From: a virus
Lineage: Duplodnaviria; Heunggongvirae; Uroviricota; Caudoviricetes
DNA length: 64,000 nt
Virus record (IMG/VR): IMGVR_UViG_2576861193_000004
Span: 1-64,000 of that record
Direction: 5' to 3' (one strand)
A model generated the notes under the pieces. That model searched no databases. It was given only the letters and a program-made list of their open reading frames with translations, and was not told the DNA's origin. Both the position numbers and the translations under genes were made by a program. Shown in pieces: positions 7,692-59,174 of this stretch. Positions within the stretch are counted from its first letter, which is position 1, and every line of letters starts with the position of its first letter.

Positions 7692-7869
7692 GTTGGTTTG
7701 CAAGACAGACCTTATGTAAGCAGTTTTAGTAAAGCAGTCTCAGTTCAGTGTTATCTTCTGATTTCCCTTCTTCGTGAGTCTCCTCCTTAAGTGCCTAAGT
7801 AAGTCCCAATCTATACAGATCAAATTCTCGCCGCACTATGTGGCTCACAAAATTAAGAAGGTAATATCT
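7692..7869 (+). promoter_or_regulatory. long cspA-like 5' untranslated leader (candidate RNA thermosensor / cold box)
   Basis: About 178-nt leader with segments resembling the E. coli cspA leader (CAGACC, AAAGCAG, GTAGTAA, AAGGTAATA before the ATG). Compared from memory. Confidence 0.45.
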
Positions 7870-8085
7870 ATGTCTAATAAAATGACTGGTTTAGTAAAAT
7901 GGTTTAACTCTGATAAAGGCTTTGGCTTTATTTCTCCTGCTGATGGCAGTAAAGATGTTTTTGTACATTTTTCGGCAATTCAGAGTAATAATTTCCGCAC
8001 TTTGGAAGAAGGCCAGCAGGTCGAATTCTCTATCGAGAATGGGGCTAAAGGCCCAGCAGCAGCAAATGTCGTTGCTCTAAGCTGA
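7870..8085 (+). CDS. csp: cold-shock protein, CspA family
   Basis: 70 aa [38 protein letters not shown]... with RNP1/RNP2 motifs, near-identical in pattern to E. coli CspA/CspB/CspG; AAGAAGG Shine-Dalgarno 7 nt upstream. Confidence 0.95.
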
Positions 8086-8173
8086 TTCAACGCTGATGAT
8101 CCTCATTTCTACAATAACGAAGACGGTGTAAGCCTGAGTGGATAGATTTGTAGGATTGTACAAGTTGAATAAA

Positions 8174-18996: not shown

Positions 18997-19069
18997 TGCC
19001 GGTTAACGGGATCGAACCGCTGACATCCTGCTTACAAGGCAGGCGCTCTACCAACTGAGCTAAACCGGC
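18994..19069 (-). tRNA. tRNA-Thr: tRNA-Thr (anticodon UGU)
   Basis: Reverse complement GCCGGTTTAGCTCAGTTGGTAGAGCGCCTGCCTTGTAAGCAGG...GGTTCGATCC...AACCGGCACCA: D-stem GCTC/GAGC, anticodon stem CCTGC/GCAGG, loop CTTGTAA. 76 nt. Confidence 0.85.
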
Positions 19070-19073
19070 AATT

Positions 19074-19160
19074 TGGTGGGGAGTGATGGAGTCGAACCAC
19101 CCGAGTCGCAATGACAGTAGATTTACAGTCTACCCCGCTGCCCCTACGGACTAACTCCCC
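19074..19160 (-). tRNA. tRNA-Tyr: tRNA-Tyr (anticodon GUA), type II
   Basis: Acceptor GGGGAGT/ACTCCCC, anticodon arm GTAGA-CTGTAAA-TCTAC, long variable arm, T-loop TTCGACT, CCA encoded. 87 nt. Confidence 0.8.
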
Positions 19161-19165
19161 TAAAT

Positions 19166-19240
19166 TGGCGATGGTGGGTGGATTCGAACCACCGACCAGT
19201 TGGTTAACAGCCAACTGCTCTACCGCTGAGCTACACCATC
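19166..19240 (-). tRNA. tRNA-Asn: tRNA-Asn (anticodon GUU)
   Basis: Acceptor GATGGTG/CACCATC, D-arm GCTC-AGCGGTA-GAGC, anticodon arm GTTGG-CTGTTAA-CCAAC, T-arm GGTGG-TTCGAAT-CCACC, CCA encoded. 75 nt. Confidence 0.85.
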
Positions 19241-19813: not shown

Positions 19814-20018
19814 TGCGTTCTGCAATCACACTCGCTCAGTGTGTCCCATTTCGGTAACGAGGCTGGAAACTGACCTCGCTGGTGTTTGGCTTATTAGGCT
19901 ACTGCCAGATAGACTTCTTCGTTTGCACTTGTATTTAAGTTCAAACAGTCGCGTCTCAACGAAAACAAAGTCATCTTATACATAAAAGATAAGTAAGTAA
20001 ATACTTATCACCATGTTT

Positions 20019-23300: not shown

Positions 23301-23375
23301 ACCAACTCCTAGCTAACAGATGAAAGTATTCTTACAGAAAGATAAGTAATCATCTACTTATTTTAGCGGCACTTG

Positions 23376-24629
23376 TTACGATAGCGCCTTAATGCCCAAA
23401 ACCTTGCTTTGCAACTCCAACTGTTTGGTATACGGTTTTGCCCGATAATAGGCTTTGATAATTTGTTCTGGCGTTGCATCGCCTGGGTCGAGTCCTTCCT
23501 CGCCCAAACATGCTACTTTGACATTAAGACCAATACTGGTCAGTCGCCTGGCTGCGGCCATAGTGTTGCGTATAGCTTGCTTTTCACTATCCCACATCAT
23601 GATCACATTACGTAATCCACGCGCCTTGAGCGTCAGGAACGCGCCCAACTGATCTTCTGCATCCTGAGTGGTGTTACCAGATAGATGCATCCCGAACGTT
23701 CCTATCGGTTCCACGTAATCACGTAATGTTTCTTCATCAAAAATAGCTCGTTTAACTCCCATAACATCGAACGCCCCCTCACAGACAACTACAGTCTGTT
23801 TGCCGACCGCATTATGGCCGTTGTAGAGAAACTTACCTGAAGCTGGAAGCTGCATAGGAAAGAGGTAGCGACGTTCAGCTGTACCGGTAATGTCTCGCCC
23901 CTGAAATGTCTTCATTACCCCATCCAGATCGTAAACCGGTATCAGTATTCGCATATCGAATATCTGTCCTTTAACCTGATCTGTATACGGATCTACATAA
24001 GCGTGCTTGCCTTCGACGCAGTATCGTAGGTCAAAATACTTTGCCATTTCAGGCGATATGTTTCGTTCAACCAGATAGTCTGGAAGACGGCCATCTATAG
24101 GAAGTTCGTAATGACGAGGGAGTGCAAGTGGTCCCTCTAACTCGACTGTGCTTGCAAGCACTATCTCTTCTTTCTTTGGTGCCCACCCCTGGGAAAGAAG
24201 GGCGTTCTGCACATATTCCTCGAACTGTCGTCGTGATTTGCCGCTGTAGTGCTTGAGGAAGACCAGCTTATTGAACTGAATCTCTTCGGGATGATCACCA
24301 GCGAAGCATTTACCGACGCCACTGGTCAGATTGAAATATACCTTCCAGTTGGAGCTGCCACATACCGGACACTCCTTGATATTCACTTCACGACCGCGAG
24401 TACTCACGCCTCCACGTCGATAAACGATACCTTCAGTATCCAACCATTGTTCAAAATCTAATTCGGTAATTAGCTCTTTCAGCTCGCTCACGATAATTCC
24501 ACTTTTAACAGGCAATATTGTGACCAACCTAAATGTTGATATAACATAAAGGCTCATGTGTTTTTCTTTTGTGGTTTGGCAAAAGAAAAGTTGTTTCACC
24601 AATGAATCAAGCGTGGAGGTGTTCTCCAC
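23376..24629 (-). CDS. dnaG: DnaG-type DNA primase (zinc-ribbon + TOPRIM)
   Basis: Zinc ribbon CPVCGSS...C..GDH, TOPRIM-like VVVCEGAFD; located directly downstream of the helicase gene. Confidence 0.8.
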   Translation of the reverse strand: MENTSTLDSLVKQLFFCQTTKEKHMSLYVISTFRLVTILPVKSGIIVSELKELITELDFEQWLDTEGIVYRRGGVSTRGREVNIKECPVCGSSNWKVYFNLTSGVGKCFAGDHPEEIQFNKLVFLKHYSGKSRRQFEEYVQNALLSQGWAPKKEEIVLASTVELEGPLALPRHYELPIDGRLPDYLVERNISPEMAKYFDLRYCVEGKHAYVDPYTDQVKGQIFDMRILIPVYDLDGVMKTFQGRDITGTAERRYLFPMQLPASGKFLYNGHNAVGKQTVVVCEGAFDVMGVKRAIFDEETLRDYVEPIGTFGMHLSGNTTQDAEDQLGAFLTLKARGLRNVIMMWDSEKQAIRNTMAAARRLTSIGLNVKVACLGEEGLDPGDATPEQIIKAYYRAKPYTKQLELQSKVLGIKALS

Positions 24630-24638
24630 GCTTATTTT

Positions 24639-25979
24639 TTAGGTAACGTCTAAGATTCGCTCAATGAAGCGCATTTGTTCGAGGTTTTGTTTAACGCGAA
24701 TGCTGATCCCTCCCTGCTGGTTACGTGAACCAGCAAAGTAGAGACGAGCCTCTCCTTTCGCTTCTTCTTCTTCTGTTTTGTTGATCGTTATTACCAGGTC
24801 AGCAATACGTACTTTTTCGATGTTGTCGGCAGCGTGCATCATTGTGGCAACTTCTGACGCGCCACCTTCACGGTTTGTCTGCGATGCCGTGATCCCAGCA
24901 ACGTTATGCTTGTCATAAAGAGCACGTAAATCGGTGTAGATACTACGAATGTTGGCGCGATCATCACGAAGGTCATAACTGGCACGCATCAAATCTGCGT
25001 AGTCGACAACAACCATGTCAGGTACCATGCCGTTGGCTTTCATGCTGTTAAGCATACGGTCCAGATCTGCCGGTGACATACTTCCTGACGGACGCTCAAC
25101 CACCCACAAACTACCAATCCCCTTCGTGGCTCCCAACTCTGCCAACTTACGATGAACCTCATCGCGCCGTTCCACCAGCTTGGACATTTCTGTCTCCGAC
25201 AATCTTGCATCAAAACGGTCGGATAAAATGGTGGTGTGAACCTCCAGCGAGAGATACAGAACATTGTAGCCAGCAAGCGTTGCGTTTATGGAAAACTCAC
25301 CCATTGCGGTCGATTTACCGGATTTAGCGAACCCCATGAAGAGCACCATTTCACGCTTCGCCCAGCCTTTTTGGTACAGCAACCTATCGAGCAGAGGGAG
25401 TCCAGTTGTAATGCTGTTTGGCACATACTCCTCTGAAGCCTCATATTCACGCGCTTTCAATCGCTCACTTGCGGAGGTGTAGTAGTCATAGATTCCGGTC
25501 GCTTCGTTCGATCCAATCTGCTGAACCTTGGCCATGATTGCCATCGCCCCCTGAAAGTCGCCCTTCTCTTTCAGTTCAGCAGCCTTAATCAGAGCATCAT
25601 CAAACGCTACGCTTTTTGCGAAGGTTGATACCTGGTCAACCATGTACGAGGTATCAGACAATTTTTCTGCAAGGATGCGCTTAAACGCAGCAACAACATC
25701 GGCGAATAGTTCCTCACGGATAGTCTTATCGCGTTTCGCACGCTTAAGCATATCCAGAATCGCAGATGAAGAGGGCGCGCTCTTGTACATACGGTAATAG
25801 CCCGAAACCATATTAACCAATATGGCATTGGCCGCATTGGCAAATTGGCTAGGTACAACCAGATCTCCAGCACGAGTAAGAAACTCGTGATCACGACAAA
25901 AATAGGCCGTCAATCTGTTCTGAAAATCTTCATCAAACTCTTCGGACAGCCCGCGTCCTGTATGGCAAAGTTCGGTCAT
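24639..25979 (-). CDS. dnaB: DnaB-family replicative helicase
   Basis: RecA-like C-terminal domain with Walker A GFAKSGKST and hexameric-helicase motifs; 446 aa. Confidence 0.85.
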   Translation of the reverse strand: MTELCHTGRGLSEEFDEDFQNRLTAYFCRDHEFLTRAGDLVVPSQFANAANAILVNMVSGYYRMYKSAPSSSAILDMLKRAKRDKTIREELFADVVAAFKRILAEKLSDTSYMVDQVSTFAKSVAFDDALIKAAELKEKGDFQGAMAIMAKVQQIGSNEATGIYDYYTSASERLKAREYEASEEYVPNSITTGLPLLDRLLYQKGWAKREMVLFMGFAKSGKSTAMGEFSINATLAGYNVLYLSLEVHTTILSDRFDARLSETEMSKLVERRDEVHRKLAELGATKGIGSLWVVERPSGSMSPADLDRMLNSMKANGMVPDMVVVDYADLMRASYDLRDDRANIRSIYTDLRALYDKHNVAGITASQTNREGGASEVATMMHAADNIEKVRIADLVITINKTEEEEAKGEARLYFAGSRNQQGGISIRVKQNLEQMRFIERILDVT

Positions 25980-26022
25980 GTGCTTTCCTTTGTTTTTTAA
26001 ACAAATTGTTTTCTAGTATTAG

Positions 26023-26772
26023 TTAATTAGATAGGGGATCAATAAACCGCCGTGCTTCTTCCAGTTCTTCTGGAAAGTGGGCGGAAATAAGGCGCTCTGG
26101 AACGATTTCCATTAGCCAGATAGCGGAGAAAATTGCGCGTATGCGCTTGCTGCGGGGGATGGTGCGTAAACGCTCCAGAATCCACTCAAAATAGCTTTCC
26201 TGAATCGGGTTGAACTGCATGTCTCCCATATGCTTAAAGCTAACCAGAGAGTCATCCAGACGGGTTGTTGCGCGTCTGGCTAATTTCTCTTCAAATATCT
26301 CAATCAGTTCTGGCTGCCACAAATGCTGTGGGCGCGGCAGCTTGTCCCACAGCCGTCGTGCAGCTGCGGAAAGAACGGTGGAGATAAAGTAGTCGTATGA
26401 GCAGCAATAGCGATCCGCAAACTGGCGTGCTTTCCATAGCGACGTTTTATTGGCAGTCGACAACTCCTGATAAGGCAGGCGTTTTAACCCGGTGGTGAAC
26501 GGAGCTGTTTCAAAGTGTTCGCGACCGTGCGTCAGCATGATATTTGAGTACTGACGTTTGTATGCCTCCGTAAAAAGACAGGTGGCCATGAGAGGATGCA
26601 TGTCGCGGTAATCAAACCACTTCGTCTCGAAGAGTTCAGCCTCGTCTTTACAGCGCGACAAACCAATGTTATCAGCGACCCACTTGTCCATAACAGCGGT
26701 ATTCCACTCTGTCATGAAGTCGTACTGGTCGTTGTCGATGGTATCGAAAAAGATTTGGCTCATGTGGCTCAC
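26023..26772 (-). CDS. hypothetical protein, first gene of the replication operon
   Basis: 249 aa, no P-loop; position upstream of dnaB suggests a replication accessory role. Inference only. Confidence 0.45.
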   Translation of the reverse strand: MSHMSQIFFDTIDNDQYDFMTEWNTAVMDKWVADNIGLSRCKDEAELFETKWFDYRDMHPLMATCLFTEAYKRQYSNIMLTHGREHFETAPFTTGLKRLPYQELSTANKTSLWKARQFADRYCCSYDYFISTVLSAAARRLWDKLPRPQHLWQPELIEIFEEKLARRATTRLDDSLVSFKHMGDMQFNPIQESYFEWILERLRTIPRSKRIRAIFSAIWLMEIVPERLISAHFPEELEEARRFIDPLSN

Positions 26773-26879
26773 CTGGTAGGTAGTTACTTACTTATCACAA
26801 TGAGCGGATGATAGCGACTGGTGGCAGTTTTTGGAAGTGGAAACGGAAGGGAGTTGTTCTGGTGGTGTCTTTTAAAAGA

Positions 26880-26934
26880 CCTGCTTCCGTATATATTTAA
26901 TAAGTTACTTATTATTTATATATACAGAAGCAGG
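26880..26934. repeat. 55-bp imperfect palindrome, copy A (CCTGCTTCCGTATATATTTAATAAGTTACTTATTATTTATATATACAGAAGCAGG)
   Basis: Identical 55-mer also at 58829..58883; 17-bp arms with one asymmetric position around an AT-rich palindromic core AATAAGTTACTTATT; flanked by perfect palindrome GTCTTTTAAAAGAC. Confidence 0.9.
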
Positions 26935-27045
26935 CATAACTTGTCGTCTTAGACGCCCAGAAGCTCTACACTTTGAGCCTGTTAAATTGATTAAAAACTT
27001 ATGTGTAAAATAGAACGCATTAGTCAGTAGCAAAGAGATGCAATA

Positions 27046-27813
27046 ATGGACGATTTATCGGTATACGCGAGATCATTGGATAAGGCTAAATACTATGTTT
27101 ACTGTCTCTATGATACAGAAGACAAGATGAAAAGACCGTTTTACATAGGAAAAGGCAAATCGACTCGTTGTCTCGATCACATCAAGTATCCCGATGACTC
27201 TCCCAAATCCATGCGGATCAAAGAACTTTTGGCTAATAAAAAATTAGGCATAGATATACTTCGTCATGGTATGGATGAAACCACAGCCAAACTTGTTGAG
27301 GCGACATGCATCGACCTTATGGGGGTCGGAGAGCTTACGAATAAGGTACGAGGAAGTGGTTCCATGATGGGCAGAATATCACTGGACGCCTACCATCACT
27401 TAGTGCTGCAAGAGGAAACTGAAATTGCTCCTGAGCACGCCGGTCTTGCCTTCCTGCTAAACAGCACCTACAAGTCAGGAATGTCCGCTCTGGCATTATA
27501 TGAAGCTACGCGTGGCGTATGGGCAAAGGTTCCAAGAGACGAGAATCTCAAATATGCCTACGCTACATATGGTGGGCTGATAATGGAAGTTTATCAGATT
27601 GAATGCTGGGTCAAAGCCGGTTCTCAGCAGTACTTTACAAGGGATATAGCTCTTGGCCCCGACACAAAACGTTATGAATTTGTTGGCAGAATAGCCGATG
27701 AGCATATTAGAAAACTGTATGTAGGCAAATTAATCAAGAAGCCACCAAGCTACGGTAGCCCTTTTGTGAAGGTTGGGGTGGTTAGGACTGAACATAGTGT
27801 TAGCGCGGCATAA
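27046..27813 (+). CDS. GIY-YIG domain nuclease
   Basis: N-terminal YYVYCLYD...PFYIGKGKSTR (GIY-YIG core); 255 aa with uncharacterised C-terminal half. Confidence 0.7.
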   Translation: MDDLSVYARSLDKAKYYVYCLYDTEDKMKRPFYIGKGKSTRCLDHIKYPDDSPKSMRIKELLANKKLGIDILRHGMDETTAKLVEATCIDLMGVGELTNKVRGSGSMMGRISLDAYHHLVLQEETEIAPEHAGLAFLLNSTYKSGMSALALYEATRGVWAKVPRDENLKYAYATYGGLIMEVYQIECWVKAGSQQYFTRDIALGPDTKRYEFVGRIADEHIRKLYVGKLIKKPPSYGSPFVKVGVVRTEHSVSAA

Positions 27814-27829
27814 AGCTGACACTGTAGTT

Positions 27830-27867
27830 ATGCATTGGCGCAATGTACGCGCCAATGCATGATTTTT
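27830..27867. terminator. bidirectional terminator between convergent genes
   Basis: Perfect 12-bp inverted repeat ATGCATTGGCGC / GCGCCAATGCAT with 7-nt loop, followed by gattttt. Confidence 0.6.
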
Positions 27868-28225
27868 AACCTTTCTTCATCAACTCTCGTTTGATTTCAT
27901 CGGTACGCATCGTGACATCGGCAGCGGTGATCGCCTCATTCAATTTCACGATGTCCTCGATTTCCTGCGGTGACTTCTCTGCCAGATGGAAAATGGCTGC
28001 TCGAATCACGTCAGAACGAGTGAACTTCTCGAAGCGAGGGATGAACTTCATCATCTCCAGCAGTTCGAAGTATTCGTCCTCCAGTGACATTGTGCGGCTT
28101 TTAATTTTCTCTTTGCCACGAGTCGGGCGTCCCTGTGGTCTGACTGGTTGGCGCAAAGGAGTTGTGTTCTTAGCCGGTGCATCAGGCTCTTTGCGCTTTG
28201 CTAGGTCACCCATTTTCATGGACAT
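27866..28225 (-). CDS. small basic partner of ParA (ParG-like, putative centromere-binding protein)
   Basis: 119 aa, basic N-terminus; gene start abuts the parA stop. Role inferred from position. Confidence 0.4.
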   Translation of the reverse strand: MSMKMGDLAKRKEPDAPAKNTTPLRQPVRPQGRPTRGKEKIKSRTMSLEDEYFELLEMMKFIPRFEKFTRSDVIRAAIFHLAEKSPQEIEDIVKLNEAITAADVTMRTDEIKRELMKKG

Positions 28226-28893
28226 TATTCTTCTTCCTCCAGACTCAACAGATAATCTACAAATTCTTCAAACTCGGCTTCCGCCTTTTTGTCGCGCTCG
28301 CTACCGGTCATTTCAAAGATAGAACGACCAGACTCTTCCGCATCATCATAGACGTTGCGGTTATACAGATTGACTGGCGCAGACTCGATTCCAAACGTCT
28401 CAACAATCTCTTTAGCCGCCAGAATGCGAGACACTTGTGATGGCAAAGCCGGACACTGGTTCATGACCGCGCGGACCTTCACTTTATCGTTTACATTGCG
28501 AACATTGTCGATAATAGGATCGATGTCACGTAAAGATTTCAAATCACGACGCTTAGGACGCAGCGGGATAATGATAACGTCAGCCATCAGCATCGCTTGT
28601 CGCTGAATTTCGGAGTCGAAGCCACCAGCATCTACCACTACAAACTCAGCTCTACCCTGAAGCGATTTTAGGTGCTTAATGATGTCATCCTGAACGTATG
28701 CAAAAGGAATCAGCTCAAGGTCTTCGTTCTGTCGACGGTCTTCACACCAGCTCGTTGTCGTGCGCTGAATATCTATATCGGTAATATAAACCTTCTTCTT
28801 CTTTTTGACTTTCAGGCAAACGGCAATTTGCTGGGCAACGGTGGATTTGCCAGGCCCGCCCTTTGTGCCGCCAACCACAAAGATCTTGGTCAT
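28225..28893 (-). CDS. parA: ParA-family partition ATPase (small type Ib)
   Basis: Deviant Walker A KIFVVGGTKGGPGKST at N-terminus, 222 aa. Confidence 0.85.
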   Translation of the reverse strand: MTKIFVVGGTKGGPGKSTVAQQIAVCLKVKKKKKVYITDIDIQRTTTSWCEDRRQNEDLELIPFAYVQDDIIKHLKSLQGRAEFVVVDAGGFDSEIQRQAMLMADVIIIPLRPKRRDLKSLRDIDPIIDNVRNVNDKVKVRAVMNQCPALPSQVSRILAAKEIVETFGIESAPVNLYNRNVYDDAEESGRSIFEMTGSERDKKAEAEFEEFVDYLLSLEEEE

Positions 28894-29211
28894 TGGAGAG
28901 TTCCCTTTGCGTATATAATTATCGTCTGAAACAACTTGTTTTCTTATATGTGATATAGCCTAAATGCCTACGGCTGCGGTGTAAAGGTTAAATGGTAGGT
29001 TGTGATTAACAATTGGCAATCATAGCTTGTATTTGTCTGTTGAAAAAAGTAACAATGACCTCTATATTACAAGTACGGTGATATGCCGTACACAATTTGA
29101 TAATGCACACGTAATGGGCTATAGCCTTTTAAAGTAATTTTTGAGTCGAAAACTCAGTTTGAACAGAGGAGATTGATGGCCTTCCTACATCACGGCCATC
29201 AGGAGGAATAC

Positions 29212-31594: not shown

Positions 31595-32176
31595 TTACTC
31601 TGCTGGTATTGTTGGCCACTCAATATCAGGTGCAGTTGATGTATCAACACGGTTCAGCAACACCCGATACTTTTTCCAGGCTTCCAGCAATGAGTTTTCT
31701 TCCTCCGTTGCGATTTCCAGATCTACAGCATCCTGAAGTGGCGCAATATGCTCACTGGCTACCTGCATCAGGTTGTTTTTTGTTTCTTCCGCCTCCCGGA
31801 TCCGGAACAGTTTTTCTGCTTCCGTATCCTTCAACCAGGCTGTGCCGTTCCACTTCTGATATTCCCCTTCCGGCGATAACCAGGTAACATTTTCCGGTAA
31901 CGGACCGAGTTCAGAAATAAATAACGCGTCGCCGGAAGCCACGTCATAAACCGTTTTACCCCGATGATCTTCAACGAGATGCCACGATGACTCATCACTG
32001 TTGAAAACAGCCACGAAGCCAGCCGGAATATCTGGCGGTGCAATATCGGTACTGTTTGCAGGCAGACCTGTATGAGGTGGAATATATGCGTCACCGTCAC
32101 CAATAAATTCATTAGTTCCGGACAACAGATTATAAATTTTTATGGTCCGTGCTTGTTCACTCATTCTGAATGCCAT
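31595..32176 (-). CDS. tfa: tail fiber assembly protein (Tfa, lambda Tfa / T4 gp38-like)
   Basis: 193 aa; start overlaps the stop of the fiber gene; typical Tfa layout and sequence character. Confidence 0.8.
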
Positions 32177-35100
32177 TATGCAAGCCTCACAATATAGTTA
32201 AATGCGATGTTTTTGACGGTGTTTTCCGCGTTACCAGCAGCGTTAACGGTGATGGTGTGTCCATGTGAGCCAATCGCAACCGAGTGCGTATGCGCACCAA
32301 TACCTACAGTATGTGCATGTGCGCCAGAACTTGCTGCAGTACCAGACAGCGAGTGGGTATGAGCACCTGCTGACTGTGTCTGAATACGTTGATAATACGA
32401 TCTACTGGAAGAAGTCCCCGGGCTTACTTGATACTGTGAATCCTGGACATAAGTGAACCCACCGCCATCATAAAATGCTAACGCAGAACCGCCGCCTCCT
32501 GGCCAACGAATACCATTACCATGAGTATGAGCACCGGCAGCCCCCGTAGAGCCACTCAGACTGTGCGTATGCGCCCCGGTGTTATTCGTGGATTTAGTGC
32601 CGTAATCAAACGACGATGTGGTTTTCGTCCCCAAATCCGTACTGGATGCGCTGGCGCTGTGGGTGTGCGATTTAATGCCGTCCTGTTCCTGAGACAATAC
32701 GGCGCGACCACTGGCAGGTTTGCCCTTAATCGTCCAGCCACGCATATCAGGGATCACGCCTGACGGATAAGCGGCTGCAAGTTTCGGGTAAGCAGATTTG
32801 TCAAAAGTCTGCCCCTGCATCAGGGCATAGCCAGACGGAACGGTATCTGATGGCCACGGGATTGGTGCACCGACTGGATAAAACTCTGCAGGAGGATGAG
32901 CCGAGGTGTAAAGCTGCGCCCACGGCGACCAGTTTGCGTCGGTCGTATCCCGTCGTGAACGAATAAATGCCGGAGCATGAGCACCGCTTGTACCACTCCA
33001 GCCAATTAGCAACTCTCCCTCACCAGCAACTCTCGCACCTTTCATGTGCAATACGTTGCCATACGTGGTCGGGTAGCTATTGTTGTACGCCTCGTACATT
33101 TGAATGCCAGCAGTGCCTTGAGTAGAGCCGCTTAACGCCGTAACTTGGCCACGAGATACCAATGTATTAATGTTGATATCGCCTGAGCCATCAAACTTAA
33201 CACCATTGATGTTTCTCGCTGTTTGCAACTTCGTAGCTGTTGAAGCATTACCGTTCAAACTACCATTTACGCCACCAGTCACATTTAGTCCATTACCGAT
33301 CGTAACAGCACCATTGGCATTGTTAATGATAAGCGGCCTTAAACTATTCCATGATCCAAGATTGTCACCCGAGGCGGTCAACATGAAGTATGTGTTTGAA
33401 CCATCGTTTCGGATAAAGAATCCGTAGTTTCCGCAGACAATGCGCAGACCATTCGCCGATTTTGAAATGATCTCACCAGAAGATGTCAAACCTCCAGATA
33501 ATGTACCACCGGTAAGAGGTAATGCACCGACATCAGAGGCTGTTGGTTTGTTTTTCGTGTTATATACTCTTCGCCATCCTGGAGAATAATCTGTGCCATT
33601 AAATACATAGATAAACTCCGCATTAGTGAGAGCACCAGAGACACTCGTCGTTGTGGCCGTTGTTATACGGATCGTATAATTGTTTGAGCTACTACCGTTA
33701 TTAAATACCTCTATAACAGCTCCTGCCAATGGAATAACGCCACAACCAGTTTCACTATTTGGTATGGTTGCACTATTGGCATAGGCCCACGCACATCGAG
33801 CAATCCATGACCTTGTGGTAAACGCGCCGTTATTTTGCAATAACGTCACTAACTGTGCTGTTGTTATTGCTCCGCCATTACTTCCTGTAGTTAACCAACC
33901 AGTAGGAGATGCCGGGCAACCTATATCGGCAGGCCCCAACGATATATTTCTTGTGCCATCAAACGCAATACCGTTGATGGTTCTTGCGGTTTGCAACTTC
34001 GTAGCAGTAGCCGCGTTGCCCGTTGTATTCTGATTACCAGTCGTATTAACACCTGGCAAATTAATATTCGCAGTACCATCAAAGCTCACGCCGCCGATAG
34101 TTCTTGCCGTCTGAAGTTTTGTAGCAGTTGCAGCATTACCAGTGGTGTTCTGATTACCCGTAGTATTTACACCTGGAAGGTTGATATTTGCAGAACCGTC
34201 GAAACCAACTCCACCGATAGATCTTGCCGTCTGCAATTTCGTTGCTGTACTTGCATTACCATTTAATGTTCCGGTGATCCCACCAGTAACAGACAACGGA
34301 CCTGAAACTGTTCCTCCGGTTGTTGGCAGTGCACCAATATCTAACGGCGTCGGTTTCTTATGTGTGCTATACATCGTATAAACAACACCATCGGTAACGC
34401 TGGAAGGCTTACTCGCTGAATATGTTGGCGATGTATAAATAGAAACTGTCGCATTTGCAGTACAATCCCAATGGATATTTACACTAGTCGCATAATTGCC
34501 AATCTCAACGTAAATATCATATGTATCGCCGGATGTGTTGATCCAGGCGAAATTCGTTAATCCGACGGCTGTACGCTTCCACAAAGCCCCGGTAATTCCT
34601 TTGGGCATTCCATTGCCTGCTCGTAGAACCAGTTCTGAAATGCCTGCCTGTTGAGGTGACCCCACGTTAAATCCCGCGCCACCAATCAATGCGATGTAAA
34701 CGATGGAACTATTTTGTGGCATGGTAACCGTAGCCAGTTTGAACCACCCAGCCCCGCCAGAGAAAGACATCGTTATTGAATTTAAAGTACCAATATCTTT
34801 CGGCGTTAATGTGATATCCGCAGTCAGTGCTTTCCCGTTAATTTTTCGGTTAGATGGCACCCTGCTGTTCGCATTGTCATTGACTACTTTAACTGCTTTT
34901 GGCGTTGCGGCCAGCGATTCACTGGTGCTGTCGACAGCACTGCTAAGTTTCACAACACCTTTAGTTGTAAGGCTTGCGTCTTCCATCGCAACTGCACCGG
35001 CAATCTCTTCAGCACGATCAGCAGCAGCTTCCGCACGGGTCGCAGCGGATTCAGCAGCAGTTTTGCTCTGAGATGCTGCCGTCGCACTGCCAGCTGCCTC

Positions 35101-55221: not shown

Positions 55222-56796
55222 TCACTCGTTCTCTTGAGTAGATGAGTCCCCATTCCCTCGGGGTTGATCTTGCCCGCTTTCTTGGGCCGCACCACGATCA
55301 TAAGTAAGTACTGACTTATTTTCAAGGGTATTTAGATCATTTTTTGGAGGAAAATTCAAGAGATCTTTATCAAATTCCTTTTTCATCGCCTCAGTAATGT
55401 TCGGGAAAATCTTCTCAATAAGCATTTCCATCTGGTGACGACGTACAGAGTCCGGTGCCTGAAGTAATGACAGTTTCTCGGCAACAGAAAATTCATCAGT
55501 AAGGCCACGAATATCGAAACTTTCTGGATACGCAATTAAAGAGTGGTCTTCGTCCAGATCTACCCCCATCCATTTCGCAACCAGTAGCATGATTTGGCGT
55601 TCAGCCCTTTCCAGACGCTCTGCTTTTGTGACAAGCAAGCTATTTACACGCTGGAAGTCATACATTTTTGCGGCACCAGATGAATTATCGATTCCCTGTG
55701 CGTTGTCCTGCTTCGTTCGCTCACCAGCTACACCAACTGAATGGTAGATTTCGTTAATCACCGTCTTAATCGTAGTGATGATCATCTGAGCTTGTTTCGG
55801 GTCTGGTGACAGATAAAACGGCTGGTTTCCACCTTCAGAATCGTAGGTGAAGACTCGCTTTGTGCCCATTTCAAGCACTTTAGTGTGGTTTTCATCACCA
55901 GGTAAAAGCGACTGTACCGGTATAGCCAACTGGCTAAATGTCTGATCCTGAATAATGGCATCAAGGTTTGACAGATAGTTTGCAACCGCACGATCAAGAT
56001 AAGCAATATCATCGATCAACGATGGGCTGAAATACGGTGATTCACTTTCTCCAATACAATCAACAGGAAACACAGGAACTACGCCGAGATTATGCGCGCC
56101 GCTGTCCTCTAAAATAACTTTTGCCTGACGACGACCTGCTCCACCAGCCCCCTTCTTCACTTCCTCACGGAACAGATACCACTCGTTTTGTGTCCACAGA
56201 CGATAACGTTGGTATTCCTGACCTGTAGAAGTAAAAGGATCTGCGTCATCGCGAGCGACTTCCACAATTAACGCCCATAACATATTCCCGTCGTCGTCCC
56301 ATGCCACATCCAGCATTTGCTGAGGTGAAATCCAGTAGGCGTAGGCGCGAGCATCTTTCTTTTTCTCGTCAGCTACTGACTCAACATCACCACTCATCGT
56401 GCTATCGACAACAACCCATATGCGACCGTAAATAGACGACTGCAAATCAATAGCGGCCATAAATGAGTCAATAGAGGCATTCTGGCGAGTCGCACGTTTC
56501 CAGAAATTGCGGATCTGCTCTGGTGCCTCTTCGATATTTCTATGAATGTCTTCTTTAAAGAGATATTTGTTGATGAGGTTTACCACCTCACGAGTGTGGT
56601 TGAAGCGATAAGCACGCTCAACTCGCTCCTTAAACTCCTGATCTCCCTCTTTAAAGTAACGAAAGATATTGTCTGTAAACCAACCACGCCCGCCAGCGTA
56701 AGTGCTGGCGAGGAAGTCCCAATGTTCTTTTTTCTTTTCGTATTCCGGGTGGCGTCGCGCCACCAGATCCTTAATTTGTTTGTCGTTCAATTCCAT
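55222..56796 (-). CDS. portal protein
   Basis: 524 aa immediately downstream of the large terminase gene; acidic C-terminus. Confidence 0.7.
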   Translation of the reverse strand: MELNDKQIKDLVARRHPEYEKKKEHWDFLASTYAGGRGWFTDNIFRYFKEGDQEFKERVERAYRFNHTREVVNLINKYLFKEDIHRNIEEAPEQIRNFWKRATRQNASIDSFMAAIDLQSSIYGRIWVVVDSTMSGDVESVADEKKKDARAYAYWISPQQMLDVAWDDDGNMLWALIVEVARDDADPFTSTGQEYQRYRLWTQNEWYLFREEVKKGAGGAGRRQAKVILEDSGAHNLGVVPVFPVDCIGESESPYFSPSLIDDIAYLDRAVANYLSNLDAIIQDQTFSQLAIPVQSLLPGDENHTKVLEMGTKRVFTYDSEGGNQPFYLSPDPKQAQMIITTIKTVINEIYHSVGVAGERTKQDNAQGIDNSSGAAKMYDFQRVNSLLVTKAERLERAERQIMLLVAKWMGVDLDEDHSLIAYPESFDIRGLTDEFSVAEKLSLLQAPDSVRRHQMEMLIEKIFPNITEAMKKEFDKDLLNFPPKNDLNTLENKSVLTYDRGAAQESGQDQPRGNGDSSTQENE

Positions 56797-56822: not shown

Positions 56823-58079
56823 CTATCTAGAACCACCAAGAATAACACGGTTTTTGACTGGATACCTACGATGTACTGGATAGCCCAATGCGTCTGCACT
56901 ATGCTCAATGCCACCTGTCTTATCCATATCTCGTGTTCCAGGCTTGTAGATGACTTTTTCCAATGAATCAATCAAATGCTTGCACTTCGGATCGATATAC
57001 AGCCGGATATCTCCAGATGCGGTCATCAGCATTCGGTTAACAGCATTAACACGATCCGCAATTGGCGGGTGCTTTTTCGAATAATCGACACGTAAGAATC
57101 CCTTCTCTTTGAATATGTCGACGTCAGACTCCCCGCGAGCATGTTGGCGATAAGCACCTGCCGGATCTGGAAATACCGTTATCTGTGATTTCCAGCGCCA
57201 GAAGCGTCTCTCAAGCTCATCACAAACCTCTGCCGTGTTAGAGGAAAAGAGCACCAATTCATCAATTGCCCATAGCTCACCATTTGGCTGAGGTTGCAAA
57301 ATTACTGAAGACATCGGGTCAATGTTGAAGTCCTGCCCTACCCATATAGGCAACCGAGGGTTGAACTGAAGCGGTTTTACATGCACGTTACGATCGAACG
57401 GGTAGTAAACGCGCCCGGACATGTTCTCAAAGCTCGCCAGGTACTCCTGAGCGAACGATTTCGGGTCCATATCGTTCTTAGCAGCTTCAATTTCCGCCGT
57501 AGGCACAAACGGAGAATCGGCAGTTACAAACTGCCAGCTCTTCCACTGTCCCTTTCTTTGCAGCTCTACGTTCTGGCCTATAGTCCACAGTTTGTGAAAT
57601 TCCGAGAAGCCTTTTGGCGTACCAATGATCAGTGCACCGCCGCGTGTCGATGAAAGAGTAGGTCGTAACACCTTGTACCAGGTGTCAGCCTTCATATCCT
57701 GAAATTCATCAAGCACTACAAAATGCAACGCTACGCCGCGCAGAGTGTCAGGCTTATCAGCACCTTTGAGGGCGATCTCCGAACCGTTCTTCAACACGAT
57801 TGTCATCGTGGTGTCGTTCTTTTTCCTAACCCACTTACGAGGCAGAACTTCCTGTAGATCGTCCCACAAAATCTGGCGAGCCATCTGGTAAGTAGGAGCG
57901 ACATACCAGACCCTTTGCTTTTTTTCCTTTGCCGCCGCACGAATAATAGTGGAGATCGACAACCGGGATTTTCCCCAGCGTCGACCAGCACAAACAACTT
58001 TAAATCGATGCGGAGACTGGAAGACTTTCATCTGTCCAGAATGCAGTTGCACAAGACTGAGCGAGGACGGGATTGCCAT
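56823..58079 (-). CDS. terL: terminase large subunit
   Basis: Walker A VCAGRRWGKS, Walker B VVLDEFQ, C-terminal nuclease-like region with conserved acidic residues; 418 aa. Confidence 0.9.
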   Translation of the reverse strand: MAIPSSLSLVQLHSGQMKVFQSPHRFKVVCAGRRWGKSRLSISTIIRAAAKEKKQRVWYVAPTYQMARQILWDDLQEVLPRKWVRKKNDTTMTIVLKNGSEIALKGADKPDTLRGVALHFVVLDEFQDMKADTWYKVLRPTLSSTRGGALIIGTPKGFSEFHKLWTIGQNVELQRKGQWKSWQFVTADSPFVPTAEIEAAKNDMDPKSFAQEYLASFENMSGRVYYPFDRNVHVKPLQFNPRLPIWVGQDFNIDPMSSVILQPQPNGELWAIDELVLFSSNTAEVCDELERRFWRWKSQITVFPDPAGAYRQHARGESDVDIFKEKGFLRVDYSKKHPPIADRVNAVNRMLMTASGDIRLYIDPKCKHLIDSLEKVIYKPGTRDMDKTGGIEHSADALGYPVHRRYPVKNRVILGGSR

Positions 58080-58711
58080 TATTCGTCCTCCCCTTCACTT
58101 CCATCATCTGTCGCATCAAATTCGCTTAGAGCTTCTTCTTCCAACGTCTCAAGCAATTCGTCATCGATGATTTCAGGCTCGTCGTCTTCCTGACGTAATT
58201 TCGCCACCTGGGAAGGCGTAAGCTCACCAAATACCAGGTTCGGAATTTCTTCCTCGTCATTTTCCGCATGATCCATGCCCAATGCTTTGGACGAAACTTC
58301 AAAGCATTTTGCAAGGGTATTACTGGCTCTCTGTAAGCTCTTGAGAGAATCCTCAATCGCCCCTAAAGGCCTACCCTCACGTTTGGCCGTAGTGACTTCG
58401 ACCATCACCATCTGCCCCAACGCATACGCCCAGCCGTCATAACGTGTACGACGTTCTTCTATCTTTTCCGCACGGGCTTTAGCGCGAAGCTCTGCGTCAG
58501 ATTTAAGAGACTCACGAACCATCTTCCCAACAGAGTCCGCGCCTTTCTCTAATCCTCGCTTTTTGAAATGTCTGGAGAGTGTTTCACGACGAATGCCGTA
58601 CTCTTCCTCCAGCTTTGAGAGTGTATATTCGCCTGACGTCCATTTGGCTTCAGCTTCGGCCCACTCCGCTGGTGTCAGGCGAGTTTTTACCTCGTCTTTT
58701 TCGACCGTCAT
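58079..58711 (-). CDS. terS: terminase small subunit (putative)
   Basis: 210 aa, N-terminal HTH-like region and very acidic C-terminus; stop overlaps the terL start. Confidence 0.6.
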   Translation of the reverse strand: MTVEKDEVKTRLTPAEWAEAEAKWTSGEYTLSKLEEEYGIRRETLSRHFKKRGLEKGADSVGKMVRESLKSDAELRAKARAEKIEERRTRYDGWAYALGQMVMVEVTTAKREGRPLGAIEDSLKSLQRASNTLAKCFEVSSKALGMDHAENDEEEIPNLVFGELTPSQVAKLRQEDDEPEIIDDELLETLEEEALSEFDATDDGSEGEDE

Positions 58712-58828
58712 AGATCCCTCTAAAACACACAGAGCGCGTCCATGCGCTCTAAAACAACTTGTTTACTGCATCTGCTAACCAACTTGTTTTCTGGGGTGTT
58801 TAATTAGGTCTGGGCATGTCTTATTAAG

Positions 58829-58883
58829 CCTGCTTCCGTATATATTTAATAAGTTACTTATTATTTATATATACAGAAGCAGG
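58829..58883. repeat. 55-bp imperfect palindrome, copy B (identical to 26880..26934)
   Basis: Exact 55/55 match on the same strand; nested inside a larger inverted repeat (GGTCTGGG ... CCCAGACC); 118..172 nt upstream of the terS start. Confidence 0.9.
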
Positions 58884-58907
58884 TCTTTAAATAAGCTCCC
58901 AGACCGA

Positions 58908-59174
58908 TTACATCACCAGTAACTTCGCTTTGGCTCGACCTAAAGTGGTTAACCCAAGAGTTCGGCGGTGATAGCGATTGTCACTGCGTTGGCGCGTATG
59001 CCCTTTCTCCACCAGCCCCTTTTTTATCAGAGCGCGAATTGAGAACTGGATACTTTGCTTGGTTGTCTTGTACGGCAAAACTTCAAGCAATTCGTCCAGA
59101 TCAAGTAAATGACCTCGCTCATAACCGAGATTGAGCGTTTTGATGATGTCCTTTTGTTTATCGGTTAACGTCAT
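58908..59174 (-). CDS. winged-helix DNA-binding protein
   Basis: 88 aa with segment KQSIQFSIRALIKKGLVEK; AAGGA Shine-Dalgarno overlapping the upstream stop (coupled). Confidence 0.5.
   Translation of the reverse strand: MTLTDKQKDIIKTLNLGYERGHLLDLDELLEVLPYKTTKQSIQFSIRALIKKGLVEKGHTRQRSDNRYHRRTLGLTTLGRAKAKLLVM

Follow-up and report, generated by a model that had tools for sequence, protein, structure and literature searches.

A long intergenic palindrome occupies three operon junctions of an SSU5-type phage-plasmid, and we consider the chance about even that it is a transcript-boundary hairpin, which would insulate the lytic operons from the units upstream of them as a terminator and possibly also as a site for RNase III. 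Three copies of the element, designated A, B and C, are held at the same positions in related genomes, their predicted folds are very stable, and gene-level expression in the relative Cyrano falls across copy A. The element is real, conserved and so far undescribed: none of the records searched carries an annotation under it, no Rfam family matches copy A or copy B, and no published description was found in the literature. It is not surprising in kind and is probably of an ordinary type.

The window, that is, the whole stretch of 64,000 nucleotides analysed here, represents 64 kb of a ~108-kb SSU5-type phage-plasmid, since the sequences around both copies that it contains match Escherichia phage CMS-2020a (CP053388.1) at 99.1–99.9% and also match PhiR41_1, Cyrano (pLF82) and, farther off, Salmonella phage SSU5 and Klebsiella phage-plasmids. 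Almost all genes of the window lie on its minus strand, and transcription in SSU5-type phage-plasmids is almost wholly one-directional. The GC skew of the window is dominated by this one-directional transcription. The features around copies A and B are collected in Table 1. Family and solved-structure searches with the 249-aa, 119-aa and 88-aa proteins encoded beside the copies gave no informative match; the 88-aa protein has a weak match to the Lrs14/Sta1 HTH, under the cut-off. A sigma-70 consensus scan found no promoter in either 1-kb region around the copies. From the sequence we infer that TATCAT is the −10 hexamer of the replication operon, and alignment shows the block TATCATC..GC..ATAGTAAGTAA to be kept in the Klebsiella oxytoca plasmid pCAV1099-111. 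The arrangement of the short hairpin in the terS leader recurs in SSU5, pCAV1099-111, an Acinetobacter plasmid and phage nickie.

Table 1. Coordinates of the palindromic element and of neighbouring features, numbered from the first letter of the window.
Feature	Position	Strand	Remarks
Copy A, 55-nt palindrome	26880..26934	−	between partition block and replication operon
Extended palindrome of A	26857..26963		outer motifs TTCTGGTGG (26857-26865) and GCCCAGAAG (26955-26963)
Copy B, 55-nt palindrome	58829..58883	−	25 nt past the stop of the 88-aa gene, 118 nt ahead of terS
Extended palindrome of B	58807..58905		outer arms GGTCTGGGC (58807-58815) and CTCCCAGACC (58896-58905)
Primase gene	23376-24629		replication operon, after the helicase gene
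DnaB-like helicase gene	24639-25979		replication operon, after the 246-249-aa gene
First gene of replication operon	26023..26772	−	246-249 aa, PHROG 2500, function unknown
ATAAGTAAGTAA motif	26785-26797		follows the putative TATCAT −10 hexamer
Putative −10 hexamer TATCAT	26808..26813	−	replication operon; 67-72 nt downstream of copy A; read from sequence
GIY-YIG homing-endonuclease-like cassette	27046..27813	+	partition block; exactly at the upstream edge of copy A; presence varies among relatives
119-aa gene	27866-28225		partition block
parA	28225-28893		partition block
terS, small terminase, DNA-binding	58079..58711	−	opens the packaging/head operon
Second short G+C-rich hairpin, then GUGUGUUUUAG	58730..58751	−	directly ahead of the terS Shine-Dalgarno; leader terminator-like
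88-aa winged-helix-like gene	58908..59174	−	closes the ParB-like/ABC-ATPase operon just before copy B

A repeat search of the window and direct reading both find copies A and B 100% identical over 55 nt and on the same strand, as the first-pass annotation had reported. They are direct repeats 31.9 kb apart, and we estimate the odds of an exact 55-mer repeat within 64 kb at ~1e-24. Also borne out is the description of 17-nt inverted arms around an A+T-only centre that is itself palindromic, with one non-Watson-Crick arm position that reads C·A on the plus strand and G·U on the minus (coding) strand. The centre consists of TAATAAGT-T-ACTTATTA with a T/TTT bulge, and overall two G+C clamps enclose ~35 bp of pure A+T. 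When up to three mismatches are allowed, the arm pattern has four matches in the window against 0.28 expected, a count reached in 0 of 100 shuffles; no half-sites beyond those of copies A and B occur elsewhere in the window. The flanks had been called otherwise unrelated, which has to be qualified: both copies sit inside imperfect palindromes of ~100 nt with the outer motifs TCTGG...CCAGA, and the 8 nt to the left of A are the reverse complement of the 8 nt to the right of B.

The suggestion of an RNA structure agrees with the very stable predicted fold. On the coding strand each copy is predicted to form a hairpin of 25–27 bp with a 10-bp G+C-rich base and an A+T-only upper stem; that of copy A is fully paired over ~25 bp with one G·U (−27.7 kcal/mol) and is followed by UCUUUUAAAA. 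Folds of 136 nt over the extended palindromes reach −42.5 kcal/mol for A (z = −6.4) and −55.6 kcal/mol for B (z = −9.1).

The core had been placed in a recurrent TAAGTA/TACTTA motif family, of which it is a poor member. That family is ATAAGTA-N6-TACTTAT, with a spacer of ~6 nt and in some cases 2, while the core of the 55-mer is ATAAGT-A-ACTTAT, with a half-site spacer of 1; moreover, the TAAGT/ACTTA core is missing from copy C and from several Klebsiella copies. ATAAGTA-N6-TACTTAT has at least 12 sites, one of them just past the putative TATCAT hexamer of the replication operon. A second motif, AAACAAGTTGTTT, has sites ahead of parA, twice ahead of terS and ahead of the helicase gene, with 12 matches against 3.0 expected. 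Judged by where their sites lie, promoter-proximal control seems to belong to these two kinds of palindrome and not to the 55-mer.

The element had been described as present twice, but the genome has three copies. The third lies outside the window, at 91622-91676 of CP053388.1, the complete genome nearest to the window; its context is a phage Dam-like methylase gene upstream, with an 84-aa gene and RNase H downstream. A pattern scan of IMG/VR and annotated phage records returned 102 complete palindromes in only three contexts: 30 before the 249-aa gene, plus one at a contig end (context A), 39 between the 88-aa winged-helix-like gene and terS (context B), and 32 after the Dam-like methylase gene (context C). 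Cyrano has exactly three, at 31.2, 78.1 and 108.3 kb. The search of related genomes that the first-pass annotation had proposed thus finds the positions of A and B, and also of C, conserved in relatives, and the three positions are kept in plasmids of E. coli, Salmonella, Klebsiella, Yersinia, Kluyvera and Buttiauxella. Across 185,579 species genomes the full pattern occurs at just seven loci, each of context A or B. Their contigs measure 12–109 kb, four of them ~92 kb or longer, and come from Kluyvera, Buttiauxella, Yersinia pestis and one MAG that bears the label Bacillota. Among complete E. coli genomes, 255 of 5,426 carry the element, at 393 plasmid places with one to three per genome and at no chromosomal place.

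The position of the element relative to the neighbouring genes is also kept. The downstream distances given for the window hold, copy A lying 108 nt from the GTG at 26772 (117 nt from the annotated ATG at 26763) and copy B 118 nt from the ATG at 58711. In relatives the palindrome begins 24–33 nt past the preceding stop codon, which belongs to the 88-aa gene at B, to the methylase gene at C, and to the 119-aa partition gene or Cyrano ORF30 at A, and the next start codon follows 81–121 nt on. From the palindrome to the start of the replication operon the distance is 107–121 nt in 30 relatives, and from palindrome B to the start of terS it is 95–118 nt in 38. Downstream of A the distance is fixed; upstream it varies from 33 to 2042 nt, owing to cassettes placed right at that edge of the palindrome, namely the GIY-YIG gene in this window and a 267-aa gene in Cyrano. 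Among context-A loci, GIY-YIG is found in 15 and the 119-aa gene is the nearest marker in 14, at 33–2042 nt. In the window, the GIY-YIG gene beside copy A is divergently oriented.

The outer 16 nt of the arms (CCTGCTTCYGTATATA) hardly differ between contexts or between genera. Centres differ in both sequence and length yet stay A+T-rich, so that the element spans 52–57 nt, and self-complementarity of the centre is maintained: of 38 distinct variants, 36 have a better fold than 95% or more of the controls in which the centre alone was shuffled. No compensatory covariation occurs in the arms, where 8 of 14 pairs are invariant; arm position 9 takes all four combinations, C-G, U-G, U-A and C·A. 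An excess of G·U over C·A on the coding strand, considered as proof of an RNA hairpin, looked strong for A and B and was abandoned when it vanished once copy C was oriented, since on that strand Salmonella-type C copies have C·A and U·C mismatches. Between E. coli and Salmonella types the 55-mer is ~95% identical, against ~55–75% for the adjacent 40 nt, and the outer arms of the extended palindrome are conserved in SSU5-type copies.

Perfect conservation between A and B, which the first-pass annotation had stressed, does not extend to the family. The two are identical in just 3 of 7 genomes from which both copies were recovered, and their identity is therefore not a conserved constraint; A and B differ at several positions in PhiR41_1, Cyrano and the Klebsiella- and Salmonella-type plasmids, which makes the identity a lineage feature. 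In the present genome it may be put down to shared ancestry and to purifying selection acting on a long hairpin, probably together with gene conversion among the copies. Conservation of the arms without covariation could mean either that a sequence-specific factor reads the DNA or RNA duplex or that gene conversion homogenises the copies. The phage has a full T4-like recombination set, with UvsW, UvsY, gp32-like, RecA-like, SbcCD-like and RuvC-like proteins.

A transcript boundary at the element had been named as something to look for, and published RNA-seq of Cyrano/pLF82 lysogens shows one across copy A at the level of genes (PMC9928086). In these per-gene values, obtained from uninduced lysogens in broth and inside macrophages, CYRAN_28, 29 and 30 (the parA operon, upstream of A) have 50, 89 and 55 normalised counts, and CYRAN_31, the 249-aa homologue just past copy A, has 6.2, with the floor at 5.0 (PMC9928086, supplementary file 2); in condition B6 the value falls across copy A from log2 10.4 to 2.6 (PMC9928086). 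At B and at C the lysogens show no expression on either side of the copy (PMC9928086), so the data are uninformative for these two copies. Within the 193-nt gap between CYRAN_30 and CYRAN_31 the palindrome is the sole strong structure, and Cyrano copy A is the most stable 60-nt fold genome-wide, at −33.2 kcal/mol against a mean of −11.2 (sd 4.3).

Other terminator-like features differ among the copies. Copy A is followed on the coding strand by the short U run TCTTTT in 9 of 11 flank variants (5.2 T per 8 nt, against 3.6 on the other strand) and copy C by CTTTTT or CTGTTTT (4.3 T against 3.1), and these runs are conserved while the remaining flank changes. Copy B has no U run on either strand; its coding side reads CUUAAUAAG, with 3 of 8 T and no strand bias. 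A terminator consensus scan does not call the palindrome, and a d'Aubenton-Carafa-type score, rough because it was computed with modern energy parameters, is negative for all copies (−20 to −48), with canonical terminators of the same or related genomes at +30 and +31 on the same rough discriminant. The ~25 paired positions predicted on the coding strand reach the length of near-perfect double-stranded RNA, at least ~20 bp, at which RNase III acts.

More distant relatives help to place the element. In pCAV1099-111, whose terS is 64% identical, there is no 55-mer, and each of the three equivalent junctions has an ordinary terminator hairpin, for example CAGAGCacgGCTCTG with T8 after it at junction B and AGAATAAGGCGCttttGGCGCCTTATTCT with TTGTG after it at junction A. 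These hairpins are flanked by homologues of a 35-nt half-element (TCTGGG..TTATTAAAAGACC.TGCTCTG.TA; z = 8.2), which at junction A are flipped, lying tail-to-tail and not head-to-head; junctions A and C of this plasmid have in common a 43-nt block of 97.7% identity. The Acinetobacter plasmid has a hairpin with a T-rich tract at junction B, past the equivalent stop and before terS, and a different, unrelated A+T-rich palindrome of 54 nt directly before the 249-aa homologue; no element is common to its junctions. Pseudomonas phage nickie has palindromes past the stop codons before terS and before the 249-aa homologue, both with CTTTCCCT..TTAACTACT. Their similarity is modestly significant, being reached in 0 of 500 shuffles but also in 6 of 500 random windows, and nickie was set aside as evidence on the 55-mer, the shared sequence being akin instead to the 13-nt motif ACAAGTTGT. 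In Rhizobium phage RHEph10 the homologue of the 249-aa gene follows its neighbour without intergenic space.

Taken with the siting of the element 24–33 nt past a stop codon, the ordinary terminators at the same junctions of a more distant relative point to the 3′ boundary of the upstream unit and away from the first-pass proposal of an operator that co-regulates the operons downstream. On the boundary-hairpin reading, the three paralogous extended palindromes would mark three operon junctions, and each hairpin would end the upstream RNA by hairpin-dependent termination, perhaps reinforced by RNase III cutting of the long duplex. The units ended in this way would be the parA operon at A, the ParB-like/ABC/winged-helix operon at B and, at C, the replication and nucleotide-metabolism block that closes with the Dam-like methylase. 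The lytic replication and packaging operons would each have a promoter region of their own in the ~110 nt after the hairpin, and ending the upstream RNA at the hairpins would keep plasmid-state transcription out of both. Cassettes such as GIY-YIG and Cyrano ORF30 insert only upstream of the palindrome edge, so the insulation of the downstream operon would be kept. This reading is favoured because four lines of evidence agree, namely the position past the stop codon, the fall in expression over copy A, the U runs that follow A and C, and the relative's ordinary terminators; a duplex of ~25 bp would in addition be a natural RNase III substrate, and processing may therefore contribute. By their siting nearer the promoters, the other short palindromes also look better suited to operator roles.

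Several observations stand against it. All copies score negatively on the classical scale, a U run is missing from copy B, and covariation is absent from the arms. The primary sequence of the arms and of the outer TCTGG/CCAGA motifs is kept at all three sites and from genus to genus, and the 35-nt half-element persists in flipped form in pCAV1099-111, none of which a plain terminator needs. In the window itself the GIY-YIG gene beside A is divergent, so that only antisense parA read-through would be stopped there.

These observations lead to readings at the level of DNA, as a protein site or as a replication or recombination element, which we hold jointly to be possible, if less than probable. 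The first, in itself unlikely, is a double-stranded DNA site for a sequence-specific phage protein, whether a repressor, an activator or one of partition/nucleoid type, with inverted half-sites TCTGG...CCTGCTTCYG that would co-ordinate three lytic modules. Such a site would account for arms and outer motifs conserved at three sites in six genera without covariation, for the half-element kept in another relative orientation in pCAV1099-111, for the likeness of copies within a genome in two lineages (A and B here, the A/C block in pCAV1099-111), and for a downstream start distance that is fixed beside a variable upstream distance at A. However, the window holds no further half-sites, arm position 9 varies freely, and the centre of the palindrome lies ~105 nt upstream of the putative start site of the replication operon, far for an operator, while other recurrent palindromes occupy the promoter-proximal positions. 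Related genomes have ordinary terminators at these junctions, and no candidate protein is tied to the site, the 88-, 119- and 249-aa proteins being without informative matches.

A combined form, which we regard as doubtful, would have the palindromes read by a phage factor, or by the SbcCD-like nuclease acting on extruded hairpins, instead of serving as passive terminators. They would so switch the phage-plasmid from the plasmid to the lytic state, whether through a joint opening of the three module boundaries or through DNA ends made for T4-like recombination-dependent replication from a circular prophage. If this were true, the conserved arms and the flipped half-elements of pCAV1099-111 would be recognition sequences.

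We give still less credence to a replication or recombination element in the narrower sense. Here the A+T-rich centre would unwind between inverted initiator sites, as in HSV oriS/oriL, or a cruciform or hairpin would be cut by the SbcCD-like nuclease, and the ends made there would start T4-like recombination-dependent replication from the circular plasmid. The clamp, A+T, clamp architecture in three copies, one of them beside the helicase-primase operon, the maintained self-complementarity of the centre, the recombination proteins of the phage and the 54-nt A+T palindrome directly before the 249-aa homologue of the Acinetobacter relative are all in keeping with such a role. Against it, the cumulative GC skew has no inflection where the two copies lie (26.9 kb and 58.8 kb), neither B nor C adjoins replication genes, pCAV1099-111 has half-elements without the A+T palindrome, RHEph10 leaves no intergenic space ahead of the homologous gene, and no initiator was identified. 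A palindrome with 27-nt arms is, moreover, short for SbcCD cleavage in E. coli.

That copy B is, or overlaps, a packaging site (pac or cos), with A and C as relics, is very improbable. Copy B lies 118 nt ahead of terS, and the SSU5 GenBank record is linearised within it, between nt 37 and 38 of the coding-strand 55-mer; this could, however, be an assembly break as well as a real end, assemblers often breaking at hairpins. No other contig ends at a copy, the equal conservation of A and C would be left unexplained, and no packaging data for SSU5 were found in the literature. The start of the Cyrano record was considered as an independent virion end and rejected: the record is a re-annotated pLF82 that was compared gene by gene with SSU5, and its start was presumably set colinear with SSU5.

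Recombination sites bracketing the block between the copies, as the first-pass annotation had also proposed, or a mobile miniature inverted-repeat element, are extremely improbable and largely refuted: the copies are direct repeats and copy A has a mosaic junction at its upstream edge, but hybrid A/B/C flanks occur in 0 of 101 palindromes with scorable flank context, only three fixed positions are occupied, the seven loci among the species genomes are all of A or B context, and the absence of chromosomal places in E. coli, beside 393 on plasmids, together with three fixed loci per genome led us to reject a miniature inverted-repeat, REP or ERIC-type element.

SSU5-type phage-plasmids are present in ~5% of complete E. 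coli genomes (255 of 5,426) and are also frequent in Klebsiella, Salmonella and Yersinia pestis (pMT1), some with resistance genes; how more than 100 kb of lytic genes is silenced in the plasmid state has hardly been studied. With the three boundary elements the one-directional genome falls into three blocks, of which one is late and one serves replication, and this offers a concrete map of transcription units that can be tested. They also mark safe insertion points, because cassettes accumulate just upstream of copy A. If a factor recognises the elements, it would give a handle on the switch from the plasmid to the lytic state.

The element can be compared with several known systems. As with lambda nutL/nutR (boxB) and HK022 putL/putR, the same hairpin heads two operons of one phage. 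Those sites lie downstream of the promoter, inside the transcript that is modified, as RNAs of 15–70 nt that work through partner proteins or directly on the polymerase; the present element, unlike them, abuts the upstream stop codon, no promoter is predicted ahead of it, and neither an N-like protein nor a boxA was identified. HSV oriS/oriL likewise combine an A+T-centred palindrome with inverted G+C-containing sites in three copies, one beside replication genes; here, unlike there, no initiator was identified, the skew gives no signal, and two of the three copies are away from replication genes. The N15 centromere sites and P1 C1 operators are likewise cis elements of one kind scattered beside the lytic operons of a phage-plasmid. 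They are short protein sites of ~14–17 bp at promoters, a description that fits AAACAAGTTGTTT and ATAAGTA-N6-TACTTAT better than the 55-mer.

The RNase III sites of the T7 early region (R0.3 to R1.3) are several similar long intergenic hairpins in a one-directional genome, and a duplex of more than 20 bp would make the present element an RNase III-type substrate too; what sets the T7 sites apart is a characteristic internal loop and cleavage points that have been mapped, while the duplex here is a predicted one. Intrinsic terminators differ from it in that the element is 55 nt long with an A+T-only upper stem, a U run that is short (A, C) or absent (B) and a negative score, and in that one sequence is kept at three sites and across genera within a 100-nt extended palindrome. 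It nevertheless resembles them in having a hairpin with a G+C-rich base just past the last stop codon of an operon, with short U runs after copies A and C alone and a drop in expression across A, and the same junctions in relatives hold ordinary intrinsic terminators.

The short hairpin before terS, the small terminase gene, is rich in G+C and is followed by GUGUGUUUUAG. The same type of arrangement precedes terS in SSU5, pCAV1099-111 of K. oxytoca, an Acinetobacter plasmid and Pseudomonas phage nickie, which suggests that transcription enters the late operon through antitermination. The region between copy B (the 55-mer palindrome before terS) and terS also holds two sites of a 13-nt palindrome, AAACAAGTTGTTT, which lies before parA as well and has the form AAACAATTTGTTT at a fourth site (Table). 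With up to two mismatches, AAACAAGTTGTTT has 12 matches in the window versus 3.0 expected, a count reached in 0 of 100 shuffles, and related sequences are found upstream of terS in pCAV1099-111 and phage nickie. The 119-aa protein of the partition operon gives a weak, ribbon-helix-helix-like match. AAACAAGTTGTTT is a candidate operator or centromere-like site.

Copy A is the identical 55-mer before the replication operon. A GIY-YIG (LEM-3-like) endonuclease gene is a cassette, present or absent, whose insertion point coincides exactly with the upstream edge of this copy; its position is taken by another gene, of 267 aa, in Cyrano and by nothing in some contigs. In pCAV1099-111, the operon boundaries equivalent to those holding copy A and the third copy, C, have a block of 43 nt in common (97.7% identity), and junction A is a palindrome of ~190 nt in which flipped half-elements surround an ordinary terminator hairpin. 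The SSU5 GenBank record both starts and ends within copy B; read on the coding strand, its break separates nt 37 from nt 38 of the 55-mer, and the Cyrano record is broken 1 nt from that point.

Coordinates of the features (window positions unless another record is named)
Feature	Position	Strand	Remark
ATAAGTA-N6-TACTTAT, example sites	19989-20008, 23342-23361, 55300		
ATAAGTA-N6-TACTTAT, example sites	26785-26797, 31533, 43319	-	
GIY-YIG gene	27046-27813	+	opposite orientation to neighbours
AAACAAGTTGTTT	28929-28941		36 nt upstream of parA start codon
AAACAAGTTGTTT	58752-58764, 58777-58789		between copy B and terS
AAACAATTTGTTT	25999-26011		between 249-aa gene and helicase
Hairpin, then GUGUGUUUUAG	58730-58751	-	directly upstream of terS ribosome-binding site
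pCAV1099-111 junctions A, C	56252-56579, 108521-108714		loci L130-L132
Record-end stretches	JQ965645.1 (SSU5) ends; L002 1-40, L004 1-20		
IS009	31635-31833	-	
cspA thermoregulator	7692-8110	+	
tRNA genes	18997-19240	-	

In Rfam, the window scores above the gathering threshold for the IS009 small RNA (226 bits), for a cspA thermoregulator 5′ UTR (186 bits) and for three tRNA genes. A family of 120-nt direct repeats (33176-34183; three copies, two in tandem, 65-72% identity) probably lies inside a tail-fibre gene. Acinetobacter plasmid NZ_CP043470.1, a distant SSU5-group relative, carries a sigma-70 family factor gene (67404-68069; L137 17404-18069) with the gene for a MoxR/CobS-like ATPase on one side and that for DNA polymerase III alpha on the other. 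In Cyrano, no sigma-70 family gene is annotated at the equivalent position.

The palindromic motif ATAAGTA-N6-TACTTAT, in some cases with a spacer of 2 nt, recurs at no fewer than 12 sites in the window, mostly immediately upstream of genes; TAAGTAAGT is among the commonest 9-mers of the window. These sites look like a dispersed operator set of the kind known for C1 of P1.
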